Of a DNA stretch of 64,000 nt, positions 653 to 14,244 are shown piece after piece. Under the pieces are notes generated by a model. The model worked only from the letters and a program-made list of their open reading frames with translations. It had not been told where the DNA came from and did no database searches. The position numbers and the translations under genes were made by a program. Every line of letters starts with the position of its first letter. The first letter of the stretch is position 1. The DNA comes from Dictyostelium discoideum (Eukaryota): contig CM000152.2 in assembly GCA_000004695.1 (NCBI GenBank), forward strand, positions 608,001 to 672,000, given 5' to 3'.

Positions 653-1063
653 TTAGATTTTGGTACATTTTTCATAGAAACATGAATCTTTGACTTCAGA
701 GGCATCGGTACCTTGGATTTCAACTTGGATACCAACACAGGCTTTACGTAAAGAGTCTTTTGATGAGGTGGCCATCATTTTCTTTTTAATGTTGGCGGTA
801 TCTGGGCACCAGGCAACAAAACAGATTTTGCTCTTTTGGGCACCTTCTTCTTTGTATTGATAGTCGAGGACAACGTATCTACATTCGTTTTCTGGGAGAC
901 ATTTGGTGAATTCATCGAATGAACAACCAGCTGGTAAGGTGGAGTCAACAATGATTTCTTTTGAATCGTCAGAGATTCTGTAGATGATACCACCATATTT
1001 ACGACCTAACTTTAAATCGTTGAAGGTTGAAACGCAGTTTGGAGCTAAAGCAATACCTGAAGA
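653..1063 (-). CDS. Cofilin (actin depolymerizing factor), exon 2 carrying the whole coding body
   Basis: The reverse strand reads SSGIALAPNCVSTFNDLKLGRKYGGIIYRISDDSKEIIVDSTLPAGCSFDEFTKCLPENECRYVVLDYQYKEEGAQKSKICFVAWCPDTANIKKKMMATSSKDSLRKACVGIQVEIQGTDASEVKDSCFYEKCTKI*. This is essentially the known Dictyostelium cofilin sequence. The exon is preceded by the acceptor ...tttatag|TCT, so the ATG lies in a tiny upstream exon. Confidence 0.85.
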   Translation of the reverse strand, partial: SSGIALAPNCVSTFNDLKLGRKYGGIIYRISDDSKEIIVDSTLPAGCSFDEFTKCLPENECRYVVLDYQYKEEGAQKSKICFVAWCPDTANIKKKMMATSSKDSLRKACVGIQVEIQGTDASEVKDSCFYEKCTKI

Positions 1064-1550: not shown

Positions 1551-2479
1551 TTAAAAAAAATTAAAATTTTTTTTTTTTTTTGGCTCACCCATATCGAGTT
1601 TGTGTGCATTTTTATCATAATAAACCCACTTTTTTTTTTTTCGCCATTTTTTTTTTTTTTAAATTTTTATTTTTTTTTATTTTTTATTTTTTTTTTTTGT
1701 GGTTCTGTTGTGTATTTAAAAAATAAAAAAAGTAAAAACAACCAAATTTTAAAAAATGAGTTTGAGTTTGGTTTTGTTTAATTTGGGTTTTGGTTAAATA
1801 TGGGTGTAATTTTTCCAAATCTTCGATAATGAGATTAACCATTCAATTGTTTAGATTTCTAATTTTTTTACATTAAAATTATAATAATTTTATATTTTTT
1901 TTCGTTTTTTTAAATTTTTTAATTTTTTTTTTATTTTAATTATTTAAATATTAAAAGAAAATATAAATAAATAGATAGATAGATAATTTTCATTGAATTT
2001 TGTAGTAATTTAAAAAATTACAATAAAAAAAAAAAAAAGAAACGGGAAATTGTGAATATTATTATTATTATTAATATTATTCTTTTATAATAATATTTTA
2101 AATTTAATTTTTAATTGTTTTAAAGATAATAAATAATAATATTATAAATTAAATTATTTTAAAATATTTCGTATTTTTAAAATATAATAAAGAAATTAAA
2201 AAAACAAAAAAATAGGTAATAATAAAAAAATATATTTTTTTTTTTTTTTTTATTAATTTTTTTTTTTTATTTTATTTTTTTTTCTAATCGTAACAATTTA
2301 AAGTGTGACAAAAGAAAGAGATTTAAACTGAAATTTTATCAATCTTAAAAAATTAAAATCACACACACACACACATATATATCAAACATTTAGATATATG
2401 AATATATTTTTTTTTTAATAATAATAATGTTTATTTAAGAAATTTTAAAATAATTATTTTTATAAATATTATAAAGTTA

Positions 2480-2981
2480 TTATTTTAATAAAATTTTATC
2501 AACAATTTTTTCATAAGCAATTACATTTGGATCATTTGATCTTTGTTCAATGAATGGTGAATTAATATCAACATATCTTGAACATTGTAATGACCATAAA
2601 TAATTACCACCCAATATTAATTTCATTGATCTTGTTAATAATTTTAAATCATCTCTTTGTTCAATTGGACATTCTAAAAGTAAAATTCTTTCATCTTCAC
2701 AAATTTGATTCATAATTTCATCATTAAATTTTAAAATTACTTTATAAACATTATCAAATGAACCAACTTGATTTTGTAAAAAATGTAAAGGGTTAGTTAA
2801 ATGATTATTATTTCTAATTTCTTTTGCATAGGAAGCACAATCATTCATTGTAGCCATTTGGTATCCACCATTAGTTGCAAATCTATCAAATCTTGGATTA
2901 ATCCAAATTTTTGGATCAATCTTTGAATTTGGATATAAAAGCATTGCAACTGAAAGTGAAACATATGTACCAGAATTAGTT
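2480..2981 (-). CDS. Terpene synthase paralog A, exon 3 (C-terminal, carrying the NSE/DTE motif)
   Basis: Reads ITNSGTYVSLSVAMLLYPNSKIDPKIWINPRFDRFATNGGYQMATMNDCASYAKE...KILLK*. The NDxxSxxxE (NDCASYAKE) metal-binding motif is present. The acceptor is tttaaaag|A at 2983-2982. Confidence 0.75.
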
Positions 2982-3111
2982 CTTTTAAAAAAATTATAAC
3001 TATCATAATTATTTAAATTCTTTTTTTTTTTTTATTTATATTAATATTATTTAAAAATTAAAAATCAAATAAGTTTAAAAAAAAAAAAGAAAAAGAAAGA
3101 ATTAAAAATAC

Positions 3112-3448
3112 ATTACATCAGCTCTATTAAATGGATTAATTGAATTAATCCAATCAATAATAAATTTTAAAAATTGATTAAAGAATTCAATTTTTTCACC
3201 AACAAATTGTTTGGTTGTTTCTCTAAAATATAAAACATATTTTTCAATGTTTGAAATATTATTAGAATCATAAAAATTTCCATCCATAAAAATATGTTCC
3301 AATTTTTTAATTAATTCTCTAGAGTCATCTGGATTTGTTAATTTACTCTCTAAAAAATCATCAACTACAAAACAAACTGTAAGATATCTTGATGCAACCA
3401 AAAGTTGTTCATAGTTACATAAAGGATATAAATAAATTGTACTGGAAA
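3112..3448 (-). CDS. Terpene synthase paralog A, exon 2 (DDxxD motif)
   Basis: Reads ISSTIYLYPLCNYEQLLVASRYLTVCFVVDDFLESK...WINSINPFNRADV. The Asp-rich DDxxD/E motif is VVDDFLE. The acceptor is taatttag|TTTCCAG and the donor is GTA AT|gtattt. Confidence 0.75.
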
Positions 3449-3449
3449 C

Positions 3450-3509
<60 letters not shown>

Positions 3510-3604
3510 TAATTATAATTTTAAAAAATAAATAAATAAAATAATAATAATAATAATAGTAATATTAATATTAATAATAATAATATAGTTTTAAATTTAT
3601 TTAC

Positions 3605-3752
3605 TTGTTCCATAATAATATTCAAGTGTTTTTTTATTTTCTTCAAATAATTTAAAATCAACAACTTCTTTATAACAAGTGTATATACACTTATCATTTG
3701 CAGGTGGTTCAATCCAATCTTCTGGGAATTTGAAATCATGAAGAGAATACAT
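3605..3752 (-). CDS. Terpene synthase paralog A, exon 1
   Basis: Starts at ATG 3752..3750 and reads MYSLHDFKFPEDWIEPPANDKCIYTCYKEVVDFKLFEENKKTLEYYYGT. The donor is ACA A|gtaaat. Intron 1 is 156 nt. Confidence 0.7.
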
Positions 3753-3821
3753 TTTTTATTTATTTATATTATAGAATGGGAAATATTTTTTGAAGTTTTG
3801 TTTATTAAATATGAAAATTAT

Positions 3822-3858
<37 letters not shown>

Positions 3859-4466
3859 TAATAAAAGAAGTAAAATAAAAAATAATAATAATAATAATAA
3901 TAATTAAAATAATAATAATAAAATAATAATAATACAATAAAATCAAATAAAAGTAAAAAAGGTTTTAATGATAAATGTATATACAAAAGATTGCAGATAA
4001 ACCACTTTAAAAACATTTGGTCCAGTTTAGACTTTTAAAATTTTTTATTAATTTAAATTAAATATAAGGTCGACCTTTTTTTATTTTATTTTAAATTTAT
4101 TTTTTGTTTATTTTTTTCATTTTTGTAACACCCCATTTATAGTTTTTTATAATTAATTAACCTTTAAAAATAAAATACAATATTAAATGATAATAAATTA
4201 TTGAAGAATAATAATAATAATAATTTTTTTTCTTGTTGGAGTTATTTTATTGGATTTTATCCATATATATTATTTTAAACTTTTCAATAATTATTCATTA
4301 ATAATAAATACTAATTCTCTGCGCTGTAAATTTTTTAAAAAAAAAAGGATTATGACAACACTTTTATATTTTTTTATTTTTTTTTTTTATTTTTTTTATT
4401 ATTTTTTTTAATCTCAAAATAAAAATTAAAAATTATTTTTTTTATCTAAAAATAAAATATAAATTT

Positions 4467-4967
4467 TTATAATTTAATAATTTTATCAACAATATTTTCA
4501 TAAGCAATTACATCAGGATTAATTGATCTTTGTTCAATAAATGGTGAATCAATATCATTAAATCTAGTACATTTCAATGACCAAGAATAATTACCACCCA
4601 ATATTAATTTCATTGATCTTGTTAAATATTTTAAATCATCTTTCTGATCATCTGGACACTCTTTTAAAAGTAATTCTTCATCTTTACAAATTTCATTAAC
4701 AATTTTGTTATTAAAATTTAAAATTAATTTATAAACTTGATCAAATGAACCAATTTCTTTTTGTAAAAAATATAATGGATTTGTTAAATGACAATTACTT
4801 CTAACTTCTTTTGCATAAGATGCACAATCATTAAATGCTGACATTTGATACGCACCATTACAAACAAATCTTTCAAATCTTGGATTCATCCAAATATTAG
4901 TATCAACTTTTGTATTTGGATTTAAAAGCATAGCCATTGAAAGAGTTACATATGTTCCAGAATTAAC
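4467..4967 (-). CDS. Terpene synthase paralog B, exon 3
   Basis: Reads VNSGTYVTLSMAMLLNPNTKVDTNIWMNPRFERFVCNGAYQMSAFNDCASYAKE...KIIKL*. The NDxxSxxxE motif is present. The acceptor is aaaaag|GTT. Confidence 0.75.
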   Translation of the reverse strand, partial: VNSGTYVTLSMAMLLNPNTKVDTNIWMNPRFERFVCNGAYQMSAFNDCASYAKEVRSNCHLTNPLYFLQKEIGSFDQVYKLILNFNNKIVNEICKDEELLLKECPDDQKDDLKYLTRSMKLILGGNYSWSLKCTRFNDIDSPFIEQRSINPDVIAYENIVDKIIKL

Positions 4968-5105
4968 CTTTTTAAAAAAATTATAACTATCATAATTATT
5001 TAAATTCTTTATTTTTAATATAAAAAAAATAATGTTAATAATAATAAGTAATAATAAATAAGAATAAAAATAATAATAATAAAAATTTTATAAATTTATA
5101 ATTAC

Positions 5106-5437
5106 AATTGCCTTATTAAATGGATTAATTGAATTTATCCATTCAACAAAAAATTTAATAAATTGATTAAAAATGTTAATTTTATCACCAACAAATTGTC
5201 TTGCTTTACCTCTAAAAAACATTGTATATTTTTCAATATTTGAAATATTAGATTGGTCAAGATATTCACCATCAATTAAAATATTTTCAATCTTTTTTGA
5301 CATTAAATTTGAAGTTTCTGAATCAACTAAATTACTTTCCAAAAAGTCATCAATAAGATATCCAACTGTAAGAAATCTACATGCAATTACAAGTTGTTCA
5401 TAATTACATAATGGATAGAAGTTTATGGTACTTGAAA
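5106..5437 (-). CDS. Terpene synthase paralog B, exon 2
   Basis: Reads LSSTINFYPLCNYEQLVIACRFLTVGYLIDDFLESN...WINSINPFNKAI with the DDxxD motif LIDDFLE. The acceptor is tacaatag|TTTCAAG and the donor is GCA ATT|gtaatt. Confidence 0.75.
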
Positions 5438-5528
5438 CTATTGTAAAATAAATAAAATATTAATTTATATATATAAAATTTATATATCAATTAAATATTA
5501 AATTTATTTTAAAAAAATAAATAATTAC

Positions 5529-5676
5529 GTGTTCCATAATAATATTGAAAAGTTTGTTTATTTTCGTCTAATAATTTATAATTGATAACTTCTTTATAAC
5601 AATCATAAATACATTTATCATCTGCTGTTGGTTCAATCCAATCGCTTGGGTATTTAAAATCATAAATTGAATACAT
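5529..5676 (-). CDS. Terpene synthase paralog B, exon 1
   Basis: Starts at ATG 5676..5674 and reads MYSIYDFKYPSDWIEPTADDKCIYDCYKEVINYKLLDENKQTFQYYYGT. The donor is ACA C|gtaatt. The exon is 148 nt, the same length and phase as exon 1 of paralog A. Confidence 0.7.
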
Positions 5677-6553
5677 TCCTAATAAAATATTTTATTTTCC
5701 ATTAATTATTATAAATTATATAATTCTTTTTTTTTTTTTTTTTGTATAAACAATCCCTATAAAAATAATAGGAAAAAAAAATTAGATATTGAAAGTTCAC
5801 CATGTATATAAATAGTTTTTTTTTAAAAAAAAAATTATTTATTTTTAAAATTATTAATAATTTTTTAATTACAATATTGGAGGAAAATTTGATTGGATTT
5901 TAAAATTATTTTTTAATATTCTCAAAATTAATGTTGAAAAGTAGTTGGAGAAACTATGGATGGTTGAAAGCCTATGATAATTCTTTTTTTTTTTTGATAA
6001 AAAATAAAAATTGGTTTGCTAATTTTTTATTTTTTTATCTTTTTTTTTATTTTTTTTTTTTTATTTTTTGCATATAAAATTATAAAATAAATATTAATTT
6101 AAAAAATATTAATTAAAAATTTTTAATGCAAATGAACTATTTAAAAATGAAAAGAAAAAATAATTACCTTTTTATATGATTATTTGGTTATCAAGTAAAA
6201 ATTTAAATATTAAAAGATTTTTTTTTTTTTTTTTTATTAATAGATAGAAGGTGGGAAAAAATAAAGAAAAAAAAAACTTAACCTATTAAGAATCTGTCTT
6301 AATTTTAATTATAAAACCTTTTTTATAATTTTAATTAAAAAATAAATAAATGGGAATTAATTTTATCCCGAAAAAAAAAAAAAAAAAATATTATTATTAC
6401 CAGATTCTTTAGATCTTTTTTTTTATTAATTATTTACTTGGAAAAAAAAAGAGTTGTAATTCCTTTTAAAATTACCTATTGTTATTTTATTTTTATTTTT
6501 ATTTTTATTTTTATTTACAAGAATATTTATTTTATATATATATATATATATCT

Positions 6554-7009
6554 CTAATTTGACATTACAATACATAATGAGATTGCATTTACAATTGATT
6601 GAGAAGCATGTAATGGAACGAAATGGTCAGTTGAATTATTAACTATTTGAACACTATTTGAAGAGTAATGAGTCATATCGAATTGAATATCAATCCAATC
6701 AGGTGCACAATCTTGAGAAGCTGTTAAAACCACCAATGATTTATTACCCAAATATTGACTATTTCCAAAGAGATTATTTTGATTTATTAGTATATCATTC
6801 AATTGATTAATTGAATCAAATATAATTGATAATTCATTCTTTGATGCATCAATACTATTAAAAGATTGATAAATTAAATCTGTTGAATACTTTAAAGTAT
6901 CACTTAATTCAATTGTTGATGATCCTAAATACCCACTTGATAATGGAAAAAATGGTGTTAAAATTCTAGTAATACCACTTGGTAAAATATATTTTAAAAC
7001 TTTAAAACT
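6554..7009 (-). CDS. Alpha/beta-hydrolase-fold protein (lipase/esterase-like), exon 2
   Basis: Continues in frame from the acceptor aaaaaaag|AGT and reads SFKVLKYILPSGITRILTPFFPLSSGYLGSSTIELSDTLKYSTDLIYQSFNSIDASKNELSIIFDSINQLNDILINQNNLFGNSQYLGNKSLVVLTASQDCAPDWIDIQFDMTHYSSNSVQIVNNSTDHFVPLHASQSIVNAISLCIVMSN*. Confidence 0.6.
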   Translation of the reverse strand, partial: SFKVLKYILPSGITRILTPFFPLSSGYLGSSTIELSDTLKYSTDLIYQSFNSIDASKNELSIIFDSINQLNDILINQNNLFGNSQYLGNKSLVVLTASQDCAPDWIDIQFDMTHYSSNSVQIVNNSTDHFVPLHASQSIVNAISLCIVMSN

Positions 7010-7104
7010 CTTTTTTTATAAAAAAAAAAAAAAAAAATTAGAAAAAATTATAAATAAATATAAAATTATAAATAGATATATAAATTTATATAAATAGTGC
7101 ATAC

Positions 7105-7842
7105 ATTAATACCTTGATTAATAAGGTTAATTAAAAAATTATCAGTTAAATCAGTTAAACCCATTGAATCAATTAATAAGACACCATCAACCATTGATGG
7201 GAATTGTGATGCGAATAATTGTGACAATATACCACCATAACTCCAACCAACTAAAATTAAATGATCATTTATACCAATTAATTCTAAATATTGTTTTAAA
7301 TCATTAGCAGCTTCAATAGCATCAACACCTTTATTTCTATTACTTTTATATTTTAAATCACTCCAACCATATCCATATCTATCATATACACAATATTGTT
7401 TAATTTTATTCATTGGACTATTACTACTATTATTTATTTGTTGTTGTTGTAAATTTTCTAAAACGTTACCCCAAATAGTTGAATAAAATGGTGTACCAGC
7501 TTCAAATAGTATTGTTTTTTCAGCATCACCACCACCACCACTACCAGCATATTCAAAACATCTAATATGTAATGATGTTTCATTTATAGTTGGTCTAAAA
7601 CTTTTACCACCAAATTCACCAGAAAAAGTTTTATTTGGGTCTAAAAATATATCTGATTGTTGAATTAATAAAATTATATCTATTATTGATATTAATGATA
7701 ATGTAAAGAATAAATATGAAAAGTATCTCTTTTTATTAGTTTTACCAATAAAATAAAAAAATAATGATACTACCACTAAACAATATAATGTTGATGGTAA
7801 ATATCTATATTCTATTTTAATAAAATCACTTAAACAATTCAT
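7105..7842 (-). CDS. Alpha/beta-hydrolase-fold protein, exon 1
   Basis: Starts at ATG 7842. The N-terminus has two hydrophobic segments (LYCLVVVSLFFYF, LFFTLSLISIIDIILLI). A GxSxG nucleophile elbow is present at HLILVGWSYGGILSQLFASQFPSMVDGVLLIDSMG. The donor is AAT|gtatgcac and the intron is 95 nt. Confidence 0.65.
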
Positions 7843-7957
7843 TTTTTTTTTTTTTTTTTTAAAAAAATCTAATTTATTATTAATGCTTAAAAAGAAAAAA
7901 AAAGAAAGGAGAAAAAAAAGAGAGGAGAAAAAAAAGAGAGGATAAAAAAAGGTGTGG

Positions 7958-7991
<34 letters not shown>

Positions 7992-8132
7992 CATTTTTTT
8001 TTATTTTTATTTTTATTTTTAATTTAAGAACATTTAATTTTATTTTTATTAATTTTTATTTATTTTTAACACAGATATATATATATGGATCTTTTTTTAA
8101 AATTAAATTAAATTAAATGTTTGTTTATTTAA

Positions 8133-8593
8133 TTATTTTTGAATTTGATAACGACGTTGTGGTTTATTAACTGAATCAGAAATTAACATTGCATCTCTAA
8201 TTTCAGGAATATCATGAATTCTAATTATATTTGCACCCCACATTGAACCAATACAACAACAAGCTATTGTACCCCATAATCTTCTTTCACTCTTTGGAGA
8301 TGGTGGTGGTAAGGATTTATCCTTTTCAGCATTTGCAATTGTATTTGCGATAAAACCTTTTCTTGAAGGACCAATTAATACTGGAAATCCTAAACCCATC
8401 AATTCTTTACCTCTTTGTAAAATTTCAATTGATTGTTCATAAGTTTTATAAAATCCTAAACCTGGATCCAAAATAATTTGCCATCTAAATAAACCTAACT
8501 TTGTACAAGTTTCAATTCTTTCTTTAAAAAATGAATTTAATGTTGTAATAACACTTTGGACTTGATAAATCAATTTTTTGTTTAATTTTTGAT
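8133..8593 (-). CDS. Trifunctional folate-synthesis protein FolB-FolK-FolP (DHNA / HPPK / DHPS), exon 2 carrying the DHPS C-terminus
   Basis: Reads DQKLNKKLIYQVQSVITTLNSFFKERIETCTKLGLFRWQIILDPGLGFYKTYEQSIEILQRGKELMGLGFPVLIGPSRKGF...RRYQIQK*. This is the conserved C-terminal half of dihydropteroate synthase. It is reached only by splicing out 8594-8699. Confidence 0.75.
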
Positions 8594-8614
8594 CTATTAT
8601 CGTTATCATTATCA

Positions 8615-8693
<79 letters not shown>

Positions 8694-8699
8694 CTTCAC
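8594..8699 (-). other. Intron of the FolB-FolK-FolP gene composed almost entirely of (AAT)n
   Basis: The donor is AAT G|gtgaagat (GT at 8699-8698) and the acceptor is gataatag|AT (AG at 8595-8594). The 106 nt between them is not a multiple of 3. Removing it is the only way to join the DHPS N-terminal and C-terminal halves, which lie in different frames. Confidence 0.6.
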
Positions 8700-10179
8700 C
8701 ATTTGTATTTATACTACTATTACTATTACTATCATTACTATTATTTAAATATTGTTCATTTTGTTTTTGTTGTAAATATTGAGTTGTTGGTTGTGAATGA
8801 TTTAATATAATTGGTACTCTAAATTCTTTTGCAATTAAAAGTATTTGTGGATCAGTCATACCACCACTAACATCATTGATGATATTACAACCTGCTAATA
8901 TTGCTTCCTTTGCAACTTGATGATGAAGTGTATCAATTGAAAGTGGAATATCATTACCCAATACTTCTCTAATCTTTTTAATGGTTGGCACAACACGATT
9001 GATCTCTTCTTCTATTGAAATTTGTTGAGCACCTGGATAAGTTGATTGACCACCAATATCGATGATATCAGCACCTTGTTCAATTAAGGCAGTAGCTTGT
9101 TGAATTGATTTCTCAAGAGTATTAAATTTACCACCATCAACAAAACTATCTGGAGTAACATTTAAAATACCCATTATAAATGTTTTATCATTCCAATTAT
9201 AATTTAAATTTCCAATTCTAATAACTTTTTCAATTATATTATTACATGTTGTTGTTGCAGTTGGTGGTGGTGGTATGTTATGAATGTTACCACCATTTGG
9301 TAAATTTAATTTCATTCTGTTTGTTGTTATATGTAATGTTGGATGAATGAAATTTGGAGCAATGTCAGAGAGTGGAAGTAATACGAAATCTCTTTCCCAC
9401 ATTAATGGATGTGGTATTTCTAAATCATCGGTTTTGATGATTAAACCATTATAATAGATGATATCGATATCGATTACACGTGGACCATTTCTAAATGTTT
9501 CAACTCTACCCATATCATTTTCAATTTGTTTAATGAATTTCAATAGATCGTGTGGTTTTAAATCTGTACTAACTTTACAAGCACAATTATAGAATGAATC
9601 TTGTTCTCTATAATATTGTGGTGAACTTTCATACATGAATGAAGTTGATTGTATAAAACATTGTTTTTCTAATCTTTTAAAACTATTTAAAATATTTTGA
9701 AATTTATCACCTAGATTTGAACCAAATGCTAAATAAACTATATTATTACCAGCATTACTATTATTACTATTCTTATTATTATTAATTAATTTTGAAGGTA
9801 TTTCAACAAATGAATTTGATTTAAAATAATCTAAAGTTCTTTCAATTTGAACACCTGGCCATTTAGCTAATTTAATTGCACCTGGTTTTTGTACCAAAAC
9901 TTTAACACGTTCAATACCAAATCCTAAACAACAAATTTTTGCCACACCAGTTGCTAATGCTTCTAATGTATAATGATGTGATGATTCTGAATAGGAACAA
10001 ATTGATTTCGATAAGGAACTATAAGAAACTGTATCAATTACATTATCTGATGATCCACATTTTGATAAATCTTTATATGCTGTAACTGAAATTATAATAT
10101 TTTGTTTAATTATTCTTTCACCTGGATTAACACCAATAACTGCTTGAATTAAAAGATCTTTTATTATAATTTTATCCAT
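8700..10179 (-). CDS. Trifunctional FolB-FolK-FolP protein, exon 1
   Basis: Starts at ATG 10179. The N-terminus MDKIIIKDLLIQAVIGVNPGERI is a dihydroneopterin aldolase signature. The middle segment ...FRNGPRVIDIDIIYYNGLIIKTDDLEIPHPLMWERDFVLLPLSDIAP is HPPK. The segment TFIMGILNVTPDSFVDGGKF...ADIIDIGGQSTYPGAQ...NDVSGG is the DHPS pterin-binding region. The donor is AAT G|gtgaagat. Confidence 0.8.
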
Positions 10180-10890
10180 TTTTTTTATTTTTTATTTTTT
10201 ATTTTTTATTTTTTATTTTTTTTTATTTTTTATTTTTTATTTTTCTTAGTTTTATTCAAAATTAAAAAAAAATCAATGGCAAATATCAAATATTTTTTAT
10301 TTATTTAATTATTTAATTATTTATTTGTTTAATTTTTTATTAGTTTAGTTATTTATTTGTTTTAATTTTTTATTTATTTATTTATTTTTGAAATTCTGTT
10401 AGTGTGGTGTGAGTTTGTGAATTCGAATTTAGTGTATTTTTTTTTTTTTTTAATTATTAAAAAGTTTTTTTTTTTTTATTTTATTTTTTATTTTTTTTAA
10501 TTTTTTTAATTTTTTTTGACTCATTGAAATTAAAAAAAAATCCATATATAGAACGATGGGGTTACACAATTTTGTGAAGGTCTTTTTTTTATAAAATAAT
10601 TGAAAAATCCCAATAAAAATAAAAATATATTTTCATATGAAAAATGTCTAAAAAAAAAAAAAGAATGGCAGAACATTCGTTTTGTTTTTTTTTTTTTTTT
10701 TATTTCTATTTATATATTATTTCAACAAATCTTTTTTTTTTTTATTTTTATTTTTATTTTTTTTTTTTTTTGGGAAGATATTTTTTTTTTTTTATATATA
10801 TTATTATTTTTATTATTATTATTATTATTGTTTATATTTTTTTATTTTACCATGAGTGAAATTATTGACCATAATAAAATTTTTTTTTTT

Positions 10891-11856
10891 TTAAAATTCA
10901 TCCTCTTCATCATGATCGACTGGTATATTATCTAAAAATGAGAGATCGGCAGTTGGAGAAGTTTTAGTTGGTGATACAGTATTAATAATTGGAGTTGGTT
11001 CTAAAACTAAATCATGATCAACTGGACTTGGATCAATGAGTGGTGGTGCAGTTATATTAATATCTTGTTGTTGTTGTTGTTGTTTTTGTGGAGAAGCAAT
11101 TGAATCATTCTTTCTAATTGGTGATGGTGATGAAAGTGGTGATGCAACTTTTTGAGTAGTATTTGTATTTGTAGTGGTTGTAGTAGTGGTGGTGGTTGAA
11201 GTAAAATCTAGATCATCTAAAAGTGATGCTGTATTATTATTATTTGTATTATTTGTATTATTATTTGTATTGGTTGTTGTTGTTGTTATATCAGAAATAC
11301 CAGAATGTAAACTAAAATGTTGTAATTGTGATAAAACTTTATCATAATCTTGTTGAGAAACAGATTCAATCTCTTCTAAAAGGTTTCTTTGTTTCTTTGA
11401 TAATGATTGTGCAGTAGCATTTTTTAAATAATCAAAAGATGATTTTGGTTGAGATCTTAATGATTCGAAATATTTCTCTGCTTTAATTGATAAATCATAT
11501 TGTGGGAATAAATTTGGGAAATCGATTGGATTTGAAAGTGCATCGGATGCTTTTGAGCTTGTACTCTTTAAACTCTCTTTCCATTTCTCAACCATATCAG
11601 GTACCATCGATGGTAAATAGGTACGTGCCATAAAGGCTGCCTCTGAGTAATCACCACTTGCACATAATGTATTCAAACAATTCAATAATGAATTTGGTAA
11701 TAAAAGATTACAAATAAAACTAATATTAGTTTGACCTTTTTCTTCTGACAATTTTGCCAACATTTTCATACCCTCAATATCACCTGTAGAAGTATATAAT
11801 AACAATAATCCTGGTAAATCTTCTGCTTTCTTTAAACAATTTTCTGCTAATTTAAT
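10891..11856 (-). CDS. Coatomer beta-prime subunit (COPB2 ortholog), exon 6 (C-terminal)
   Basis: Reads [97 protein letters not shown]...DHDEEDEF*. It is collinear with human COPB2 (...LLLLATASGN...AAFLARTYLPSQVSRVVKLWRENLSK) and has an acidic C-terminal tail. Confidence 0.85.
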
Positions 11857-11961
11857 CTATTTTTTTAAAAAAAAAAAAAAATACAAATAAAATTAATATT
11901 ATTATTTATAAAAAAACACCATATTATATATATATATATGTATTTTTATATATATATTTAC

Positions 11962-12273
11962 TTCACCAATTGATAAAGCTAAGTCACCTAAATGTTTAAA
12001 TTTAGTTTCAGAATCAGATTTTAAGGCGATTTCATGAGCAACATCAAGATTTTCTAATTGAATTGCTAATTCGAATCTATGATCAAGATCAGTTGAAACC
12101 TCTAATGCTTTCTCTTTATAACCTTGAGATTCCAAAAAGTGTGCAATACTATTTCTTTGATCTTGTGGTATCTTTGGTAAAATTCTTTCTGCACCTTCTA
12201 AATCACCTCTTAAAATTGATGTTTGATAGCTAATAACTGAAATATGTAATTTATATGAAACAATATTTAAATT
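11962..12273 (-). CDS. Coatomer beta-prime, exon 5
   Basis: Reads [104 protein letters not shown], which matches human ELNIVSYSLLVSVLEYQTAV...[34 protein letters not shown]. The 5' boundary has a 1-nt reading uncertainty at the 12240/12241 line boundary. Confidence 0.7.
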
Positions 12274-12716: not shown

Positions 12717-12794
12717 CTTTAATCATTAAAATTAAAATTAATGTTAGTAATAATAATAAAAAATAAATAAATAAATATAATAAATAATACAAAC

Positions 12795-14060
12795 ATTTTT
12801 TGGTGAAGTTTTTTCAATTCTACGAATAATATCAGCAGAATCCCAACTATAGAAACAAAGTGTATCATTTGATTTTACACCAAGTAAAGAACCACCAAAG
12901 ATACCTTCAGCAGAGAAAGATGGTTTAAAACTATGAGTTTCTTTAAAGTTTTTAAAGATTTTAATACGAGATGTAGATTCACGTACAGCGTATTGACCTG
13001 AATCTTCTGCCCAAACAAATTCCAATGCATTACCAAATGATTTATTTCTCCAAGCTAGCGCGGTGTAAATGATGAATTCACCATCACCACAGACACTAAC
13101 GAATCTACCATTGGAGTTGTGTTGTAAACTTTGAGGGAACACTTCGCAATTGCCAAGATCTTTGGATTGGAGTGACAACTTTTCACCATCTTGTACCTCT
13201 TGCTCCAATGTGGAGGAGATGTTTGAGATTCTAATCTCATTGTGTTTTGCGTAGATTACCTTACCACCTTGGTCCATTGAAACGGGTGGTTTGTTCTTAC
13301 CAATCTTCAACACCACTGTACCGTCATCGTAGCCCAACCCAATGAAGTTGGAGCCACGTAAAAAGTTCATTGACCAAACGAAACCCATGCCATAGTTGAG
13401 TGTCCTCTCCAAACGGTAGGTGCTGGAGTGCCAGAGCTTCACGGTGCCATCTTCACTGCCGCTGAGGATCAAGGGGAGCTCGGGGTGGTAGCACACCACC
13501 GAGACGTTGTTTGAGTGGCCCTCCAATGTCTGGACGCAAGTCTTTGATTGGTAATCCCAAATTTTCACTAGCTTATCGTCGGCACCGCTTATCAAGTATG
13601 GCTTTTCACCGCCAGAGAAATACTCGACACTGTTGATACCCTTTTCGTGTCCCTCCAATGTAAAGTGAGGATGTGGTGAGTTTATACTCCACACTTTCAC
13701 AGTTTTATCCAATGATGCGGTTGCAAATTGATTGGTATCCTTTGGATTCCATGCAATCGACATGACGTAATGTGAATGTCCTTCAAAGACTTGAGTGTTA
13801 CTCCATCCCTTTTCATAATCCCATAACTTTATAAACATATCATCCGATGATGATAATATATATGGTAATGTTGGATGAACTATAATACATCTAATATAAT
13901 CGGCATGTGCTTCAAATGATTTTATCTTTTCCATTGTATTATAATTATAAACTCTAATATATGTATCATCACTACCTGTAACTATCCATTGTTTCTTTGC
14001 AATGAATCTTGCTGTTCTAACTGGATTATTTGGTGAAACTTCAAATGATTTTACCATATT
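12795..14060 (-). CDS. Coatomer beta-prime, exon 3 (WD40 propeller)
   Basis: Reads [86 protein letters not shown]...[10 protein letters not shown]. The donor is AAA AAT|gtttgt. Confidence 0.85.
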
Positions 14061-14244
14061 CTTTAATATTTTACATAATCAATCATCATCATCATCATCA
14101 TCATCATCATTTTTTTCAAAAAAAAAAAAAAAAAAAAAAAAAAAGAGTTTTGTGTGACATTATTATGATAATATTAGTATAAATAATTTATTTAAAACAT
14201 TATTGTTATTGTTATTATTGATTATACTATATGTAAATACATAC

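Follow-up and report, generated by a model that had tools for sequence, protein, structure and literature searches.

DdTPS7 and DdTPS9, a tandem pair of microbial-type terpene synthase genes in Dictyostelium discoideum

Gene structure and neighbourhood

Positions 2480-5676 on the minus strand of the 64,000-nt stretch of Dictyostelium discoideum AX4 DNA analyzed here (the window) almost certainly correspond to DdTPS7 and DdTPS9, head-to-tail paralogues that encode single-domain, microbial-type class I terpene synthases. DdTPS7 is the upstream gene on this strand (5676-4467) and DdTPS9 the downstream gene (3752-2480). An exact-sequence look-up found the spliced upstream product to be identical at every residue to XP_642261.1/Q54YE1 (TPS7_DICDI, DDB_G0278647), and the spliced downstream product to be likewise identical at every residue to XP_642260.1/Q54YE2 (TPS9_DICDI, DDB_G0278279). 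Since the spliced translations equal the database proteins residue for residue, the gene models used here are the accepted ones. The pair is thus already known, with both genes named and biochemically studied before, and there is nothing new in it. The first description of social-amoeba terpene synthases reportedly named, cloned and assayed both genes. The features of the locus are as follows.

5529..5676, minus strand: DdTPS7 exon 1, 148 nt, ATG at 5676 (splicing and translation)
5438..5528, minus strand: DdTPS7 intron 1, 91 nt, GT..AG, phase 1, 4% G+C
5106..5437, minus strand: DdTPS7 exon 2, 332 nt, with the Asp-rich DDFLE (residues 79-83) at 5337-5351
5007..5105, minus strand: DdTPS7 intron 2, 99 nt, GT..AG, phase 0
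4467..5006, minus strand: DdTPS7 exon 3, 540 nt, stop codon included
4968-4973, minus strand: K172-K173 in DdTPS7 exon 3
4806-4832, minus strand: NSE triad NDCASYAKE (residues 219-227) in DdTPS7 exon 3
4560-4565, minus strand: R308-F309, the altered RY pair, in DdTPS7 exon 3
3753..4466, minus strand: spacer from the DdTPS7 stop to the DdTPS9 ATG, 714 nt, 11.6% G+C
3605..3752, minus strand: DdTPS9 exon 1, 148 nt, ATG at 3752 (splicing and translation)
3449..3604, minus strand: DdTPS9 intron 1, 156 nt, GT..AG, phase 1
3117..3448, minus strand: DdTPS9 exon 2, 332 nt, with DDFLE (residues 79-83) at 3348-3362
3020..3116, minus strand: DdTPS9 intron 2, 97 nt, GT..AG, phase 0
2480..3019, minus strand: DdTPS9 exon 3, 540 nt, stop codon included
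2981-2986, minus strand: K172-R173 in DdTPS9 exon 3
2819-2845, minus strand: NDCASYAKE (residues 219-227) in DdTPS9 exon 3
2573-2578, minus strand: R308-Y309 pair in DdTPS9 exon 3
656-1063: neighbouring cofilin gene
7066-7842: neighbouring alpha/beta-hydrolase gene
8524-10179: neighbouring FolB-HPPK-DHPS gene

Both genes share exons of 148, 332 and 540 nt that yield 339 residues, and all four introns are bounded by GT..AG, are 91-156 nt long and have a G+C content of 3-8%, with 23% in the coding sequence. In DdTPS9 intron 1 there is a homopolymer run 48 nt long (3456-3503), as well as a (TAA)n array. The DdTPS7 3' end presumably lies within the spacer, and so, as we infer, does the DdTPS9 promoter.

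A reading of the raw sequence alone had delimited both genes to the base, from the downstream stop at 2480 to the upstream ATG at 5676, and had given the correct enzyme class; its three exons per gene, with 148-nt first exons, are borne out by splicing and translation. One splice detail had to be corrected. Specifically, this sequence-only reading assigned a phase 2 intron-2 donor to one paralogue (A) and a phase 0 donor to the other, with a resulting one-residue indel, which is at odds with its own statement that the exon phases are identical. The first two exons sum to 480 nt in both genes, so intron 2 is in phase 0 in each, and both proteins are 339 aa long and align without a gap. A phase-2 donor for paralogue A was rejected, since the reading frame stays open with none of the GTs in that phase, and the database protein results from the phase-0 GT at 3116. 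The gene models are based on sequence and database annotation, which leaves some room for exon joining other than that modelled, such as this phase-2 donor with its indel, but we consider it extremely unlikely given that the GTs at 3116 and 5105 give exons of 148/332/540 nt and gap-free 339-aa proteins, that the modelled proteins match their RefSeq and UniProt entries without any difference, and that the exon 2/3 junction is gap-free in all 10 clade members bar one, a 323-aa automatic model.

In regards to the surroundings, other species maintain the same succession of genes (hydrolase, TPS7-type, TPS9-type, cofilin), and fused TPS9-cofilin gene models appear in recent automatic annotations. 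Inspection of the locus neighbours revealed no P450 gene directly beside TPS7/TPS9, unlike the DdTPS8-CYP521A1 cluster; DdTPS2, 3 and 8 adjoin P450 genes, and TPS-CYP clusters have been named for these alone (PMC6524965). Neither Rfam nor tRNA scanning gave a match anywhere in the window.

Family, motifs and predicted fold

Pfam analysis identified PF19086 as the sole terpene-synthase family matched, and as the sole Pfam family with an E value below 0.1. TPS9 scored 32.7 bits, above the gathering score of 23.7, and TPS7 scored 20.8 bits, just below it. The plant-type families PF03936 and PF01397 gave no match with either protein at E <= 1, and a length of 339 aa cannot accommodate a beta-alpha two-domain architecture. 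Of the two families put forward by the sequence-only reading, PF19086 was therefore recovered, in full only for TPS9, and PF03936 was not; its assignment of the pair as tandem microbial-type class I terpene synthases of an amoebozoan agrees with the database names, Terpene synthase 9 and Terpene synthase 7.

The motifs that led to that assignment are all present. The Asp-rich DDxx(D/E) motif is DDFLE at residues 79-83 of both proteins, found as the predicted VVDDFLE and LIDDFLE, and the NSE triad is the likewise predicted NDCASYAKE at residues 219-227 of both, with 140 residues separating D79 from the triad. Among 41 relatives D79, N219 and D220 are invariant, and D80 is retained in 39/41, S223 in 40/41, E227 in 38/41 and R308 in 38/41. 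The diphosphate-sensor arginine has been defined as lying ~46 residues before the NSE triad (PMC5082573). R173 of TPS9 stands at precisely this distance (46 residues) ahead of N219, and TPS7 has K172-K173 in this region and no Arg. In the RxxNxG sensor column, 34 of the 41 relatives have Arg, and all 7 members of the TPS7/TPS9 clade that were aligned have K172. Near the C-terminus TPS9 has the pair R308-Y309, and TPS7 and its orthologues have R308-F309; a bacterial caryophyllene synthase with RF in place of RY is active (PMC5082573).

An AlphaFold model of TPS9 built with the 41 relatives as input had a pLDDT of 92 and a pTM of 0.92; an earlier structure prediction from 7 close sequences (pLDDT 46.5) was dropped. 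Over its whole length TPS9 is predicted to adopt a single all-helical alpha-domain terpenoid synthase fold. The 50 Foldseek matches listed for this model are all single-domain class I terpene synthases, fungal and bacterial, with query-normalised TM scores of 0.69-0.79 over ~305-355 alignment columns. TPS7 is 67% identical, without gaps, to the modelled TPS9. At the sequence level, phmmer searches of PDB chains with a single sequence gave E values of at least 0.08 at best, so a clade profile was needed for significance. This profile aligned residues 33-310 with Antrodia cinnamomea Cop4 (AcCop4, 8gr5) at E 1.3e-4, with both metal-binding motifs (Asp-rich and NSE) and the GNxxWS..RY segment in register, and it also matched aristolochene and pentalenene synthases.

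An alpha-helical fold and an Asp-rich motif are also common to prenyltransferases, and the proteins could on this ground be isoprenyl diphosphate synthases or other members of the terpenoid-synthase fold that are not cyclases. Prenyltransferases have two DDxxD motifs. TPS7 and TPS9 have instead a single Asp-rich motif and an NSE triad, their only Pfam family below E 0.1 is PF19086, every one of the 50 fold matches listed is a terpene cyclase or synthase, and cyclised products are published in PMC10088877, where DdTPS9 (Q54YE2) is listed with the motif GNYLWSLQCSRY and the product beta-barbatene. We therefore regard a non-cyclase function as having practically negligible probability.

The assignment as terpene synthases is in line with what has been reported for these enzymes. 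All nine DdTPS tested are described as active, and the sesquiterpenes made by DdTPS7 and by DdTPS9 have both been found in the volatile bouquet (PMC6524965). Published work also gives linalool as a further DdTPS9 product in vitro, and expression of all nine DdTPS genes during multicellular development. These reports (PMC6524965; PMC10088877) agree with the suggestion in the sequence-only reading that neighbouring paralogues might produce different volatiles. Taking the conserved motifs together with what is established for class I enzymes, three Mg2+ would be held between the Asp-rich motif (D79, D80, E83) and the NSE triad (N219, S223, E227) on opposite helices, and these ions would bind the diphosphate of farnesyl diphosphate. 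The diphosphate would be hydrogen-bonded by the basic K172/R173 and R308 as well as by Y309 (F309 in TPS7), and ionisation would then give an allylic cation that may cyclise within the hydrophobic helical pocket.

Duplication and divergence of the pair

TPS7 and TPS9 are identical at 226 of 339 residues (66.7%) with no gaps, within the 65-70% that had been estimated from the raw sequence, and similarity between the two genes begins at the ATG. A tandem duplication in the D. discoideum species complex gave rise to the pair; our searches found no D. purpureum protein in the TPS7/TPS9 subclade. D. citrinum and D. dimigraforme each have both TPS7-type and TPS9-type orthologues, and TPS7-type orthologues also occur in other D. 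discoideum strains. Judged from this distribution, the duplication took place before D. discoideum, D. citrinum and D. dimigraforme separated, as the proposed older duplication followed by divergence had anticipated. Copy number in the array differs between species, with three copies and a fragment in D. dimigraforme, and one 'cf. discoideum' strain has another TPS7 copy at a distance of 10 kb.

Substitution rates between orthologues gave dN/dS values of 0.13-0.33, with 0.16 for TPS7 and its D. dimigraforme orthologue, and a value of 0.44 between the paralogues. Purifying selection has thus maintained both copies. At 0.46, the paralogue dS does not exceed some of the orthologue values (0.39-0.60). 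Gene conversion was considered as a reading of this dS but not adopted, as the protein tree splits the two clades cleanly; synonymous sites in coding sequence of 23% G+C are probably constrained or saturated.

These data also bear on whether DdTPS7 could be a decaying or catalytically dead paralogue, with DdTPS9 alone a working enzyme. The Pfam score of TPS7 below the gathering score would fit such a loss, as would its Lys-Lys at the diphosphate-sensor Arg of its relatives and its RF for RY. Against this, its 339 codons form an unbroken reading frame, its splice sites are canonical, all metal-binding residues are present, and orthologues persist in D. citrinum and D. dimigraforme as well as in other D. 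discoideum strains, with the dN/dS of 0.16 noted above for the D. dimigraforme orthologue. Further, the RF variant is active in the bacterial caryophyllene synthase, the DdTPS7 sesquiterpene is reported from the volatile bouquet (PMC6524965), and turnover of FPP into a sesquiterpene by recombinant DdTPS7 is already described in the literature. A dead DdTPS7 is thus very unlikely, and two working enzymes remain our reading of the locus.

As a discovery the pair carries little weight. Several comparative points are without mention in the literature as cited here, namely the Lys in the sensor column of the clade, the RF of the TPS7 branch, the copy-number variation of the array and the fused TPS9-cofilin models. 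We offer only tentatively, as a doubtful rather than a favoured view, that the TPS7/TPS9 subclade is of recent origin and restricted to the D. discoideum species complex, that two of its diphosphate-contacting positions have changed, and that its array copy number varies between close species. The two positions meant are Lys for the sensor Arg at column 172 (7/7 clade members aligned) and RF for RY in the TPS7 branch. Should these substitutions affect how the diphosphate is handled and which product results, the locus would amount to a compact natural experiment on the origin of a new volatile.

Comparison with known terpene synthases

A word-indexed protein search, even with a profile, recovered six clade clusters only. 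Since it stopped at the clade, other dictyostelid terpene synthases came within reach only through an exhaustive profile search, which gave DdTPS3, DpTPS10, DpTPS2, DdTPS1 and DlTPS1 as the closest proteins outside the clade. These five share family, motifs and a similar length with TPS7 and TPS9, but identity is only 27-30%. They differ further in having Arg at the column where the TPS7/TPS9 clade has Lys172, and in their Asp-rich motif, which is mostly DDxxD as opposed to mostly DDxxE in the clade.

Beyond the dictyostelids, the best match by both profile and fold is to fungal class I sesquiterpene synthases, namely Antrodia cinnamomea Cop4 (8gr5/8gr7) and aristolochene synthases (1dgp, 2e4o). 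Their TM scores against the TPS9 model are 0.73-0.77, but they belong to another kingdom, their identity is only ~16-17%, and AcCop4 has Arg-Arg at the position of the TPS7 Lys-Lys. Bacterial class I sesquiterpene synthases (pentalenene synthase, the N-terminal domain of geosmin synthase, T-muurolol synthase and 1-epi-cubenol synthase) are similar in being single alpha-domain proteins with TM scores of 0.71-0.79. They have the motif set and spacing of TPS7/TPS9, with 140 residues from DD to NSE, and Arg173 of TPS9, 46 residues before the NSE triad, has the bacterial spacing. They differ in an identity of 12-16% and in genes that are without introns. Finally, comparison with DdTPS7 and DdTPS9 in the databases revealed no difference, and the genes of the window are those very genes.

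Gene models and identity of the tandem pair

We read window 2200-6000 on the minus strand and spliced the exons by hand, which gave two gene models arranged head-to-tail, both with exons of 148, 332 and 540 nt:

5676-5529, 5437-5106, 5006-4467, minus strand: exons of the upstream gene, DdTPS7
3752-3605, 3448-3117, 3019-2480, minus strand: exons of the downstream gene, DdTPS9

The four introns, of 91-156 nt and 3-8% G+C, all have GT-AG boundaries. The G+C content is 23% in the coding sequence and 11.6% in the 714-nt intergenic spacer. The encoded proteins, each of 339 residues, are identical at 226/339 positions (66.7%) in a gap-free alignment, and their coding DNA is 79.1% identical; this similarity begins at the ATG, with the flanks giving only short low-complexity matches. 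The sequence-only reading correctly placed the gene limits, the three exons per gene and the 148-nt first exons, its estimate of 65-70% protein identity holds, and it rightly interpreted both products as terpene synthases carrying Asp-rich and NSE motifs. Its sole wrong detail was a difference in intron-2 phase accompanied by a one-residue indel. The first two exons of either gene sum to 480 nt (148 + 332), which places intron 2 in phase 0, and therefore there is no such indel. In intron 1 of DdTPS9, positions 3456-3503 form a perfect 48-nt homopolymer, poly(A) on the plus strand and poly(T) in gene sense, and a (TAA)n array occupies 3507-3585. Such low-complexity intron sequence is typical of Dictyostelium.

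Exact-sequence look-up identified the two proteins as D. discoideum AX4 'Terpene synthase 9' (TPS9_DICDI, Q54YE2, XP_642260.1, DDB_G0278279) and 'Terpene synthase 7' (TPS7_DICDI, Q54YE1, XP_642261.1, DDB_G0278647). These exact matches indicate that our gene models agree with the accepted ones. The tandem pair is real, but both genes were previously named and characterized and are not novel. All nine DdTPS genes are expressed in multicellular development, every DdTPS enzyme tested is active, and the volatile bouquet contains sesquiterpene products of both DdTPS7 and DdTPS9, with linalool as an additional DdTPS9 product in vitro (PMC6524965). Beta-barbatene is also listed for DdTPS9 (Q54YE2) together with the motif GNYLWSLQCSRY (PMC10088877), and this motif is present in the downstream gene.

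Genomic neighbours and duplication history

The pair is flanked by the following genes:

656-1063, minus strand: cofilin-1A (cofA, DDB_G0277833), downstream of TPS9, ~1.4 kb away
7066-7842 and 6554-6802, minus strand: alpha/beta-hydrolase gene (PF00561), directly upstream of DdTPS7
8524-10179, within 8133-10179, minus strand: trifunctional folate-pathway gene with FolB, HPPK and pterin-binding DHPS domains, beyond the hydrolase

A long Asn/Asp-rich low-complexity stretch breaks the reading frame of the FolB-HPPK-DHPS gene as listed, and this gene is probably split by an intron. Among the neighbours in the window no P450 gene adjoins the TPS7/TPS9 pair; the published TPS-CYP clusters involve only DdTPS8, 2 and 3 (PMC6524965). 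In several other D. discoideum strains, automatic annotation has produced 461-residue 'hypothetical proteins' (P0009, P0012, P0015) in which TPS9 residues 1-325 are joined to cofilin residues 2-137. Cofilins and terpene synthases share one 90%-identity cluster because of these chimeric models, and this mixed cluster is an annotation artefact.

Relatives keep the order hydrolase, TPS7-type, TPS9-type, cofilin and differ in copy number. The array of D. dimigraforme (JBTAPM010000037.1, 7765-14130), where the hydrolase is likewise upstream of the TPS7-type gene, has three intact copies and a TPS7-like fragment (coordinates of extract L001):

7765-9017: TPS7-type
10001-11413: first TPS9-type
11804-12008: short TPS7-like fragment, between both TPS9-types
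12754-14130: second TPS9-type

One D. cf. discoideum strain (JBTAPI010000089.1; extract L002, 1-13088) has a second TPS7-type copy at 10001-11173, ~10 kb from the first, which ends at 151. The DNA between the two copies holds four unannotated ORFs and is possibly an insertion. The second copy is represented by a 323-residue model from which 13 residues are missing where exons 2 and 3 meet.

In a neighbour-joining tree, the TPS7-type and TPS9-type proteins form separate clades. Both clades have members from D. discoideum, D. citrinum and D. dimigraforme, and the two D. purpureum proteins included lie outside the TPS7/9 clade (DdTPS7 and DdTPS9 with their orthologues and close copies). In a 50%-identity library this entire clade forms one cluster, after which matches fall from 692 to about 200 bits. 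The tree and the single cluster indicate that the duplication predates D. discoideum, D. citrinum and D. dimigraforme and postdates the D. purpureum split. The dN/dS ratio is 0.13-0.33 for orthologues and 0.44 for TPS7 versus TPS9, and both genes are under purifying selection.

Active-site residues and departures from canonical motifs

In an alignment of 41 relatives, seven of them TPS7/9 clade members, D79, N219 and D220 are invariant, while D80 is conserved in 39, S223 in 40, and E227 and R308 in 38 each. D79 and N219 are 140 residues apart, which is the canonical spacing. These positions correspond to the residues by which type I cyclases bind metal and diphosphate, according to a published definition (PMC5082573).

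There are several departures from the canonical motifs. The RxxNxG column has Arg, the diphosphate sensor, in 34 of the 41 sequences and Lys172 in all seven TPS7/9 clade members of this alignment. AX4 TPS9 has Lys172-Arg173 (window 2981-2986, minus strand), with Arg173 exactly 46 residues before the NSE triad, and TPS7 has Lys172-Lys173 (window 4968-4973, minus strand). RF replaces RY in TPS7 and its orthologues, a variant also found in an active bacterial caryophyllene synthase (PMC5082573). Finally, nearly all clade members have DDxxE whereas most relatives have DDxxD. In view of the activity reported in the literature and of the dN/dS values, these departures are no argument against function.

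From what is known of class I enzymes and from the conserved residues, three Mg2+ that bind the substrate diphosphate would be held between two facing helices, one contributing D79, D80 and E83 and the other N219, S223 and E227. The diphosphate would also be hydrogen-bonded by basic residues 172/173, R308 and Y309. Ionisation would then yield a carbocation that is cyclised within a hydrophobic pocket.

Family membership and fold

Of the two Pfam families that the sequence-only reading had put forward for an HMM search, PF19086 (Terpene_syn_C_2) matches both proteins (TPS9 32.7 bits, TPS7 20.8 bits; gathering score 23.7), and the plant-type family PF03936 has no match to either in the Pfam scan. 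When 1.84 billion representatives were searched exhaustively with a profile, 53 proteins reached E <= 0.001, and those looked up by name (DdTPS3, DpTPS10, DpTPS2, DdTPS1 and DlTPS1) are dictyostelid terpene synthases.

We modelled TPS9 with AlphaFold on the 41-relative alignment (pLDDT 92, pTM 0.92). Along its full length the model superposes on single-domain sesquiterpene synthases from fungi and bacteria, at query-normalised TM scores of 0.69-0.79. Its fold matches include AcCop4, pentalenene synthase, the N-terminal domain of geosmin synthase, Agrocybe linalool synthase, T-muurolol synthase and 1-epi-cubenol synthase. Run against solved structures, a profile of 10 TPS7/9 clade members matched class I sesquiterpene synthases: pentalenene synthase, the Penicillium and Aspergillus aristolochene synthases, and AcCop4 (8gr5), the last at E 1.3e-4 over residues 33-310. 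Three features of the clade are in register with AcCop4 when the two are aligned, namely the Asp-rich motif, the NSE triad and the GNxxWS...RY segment.
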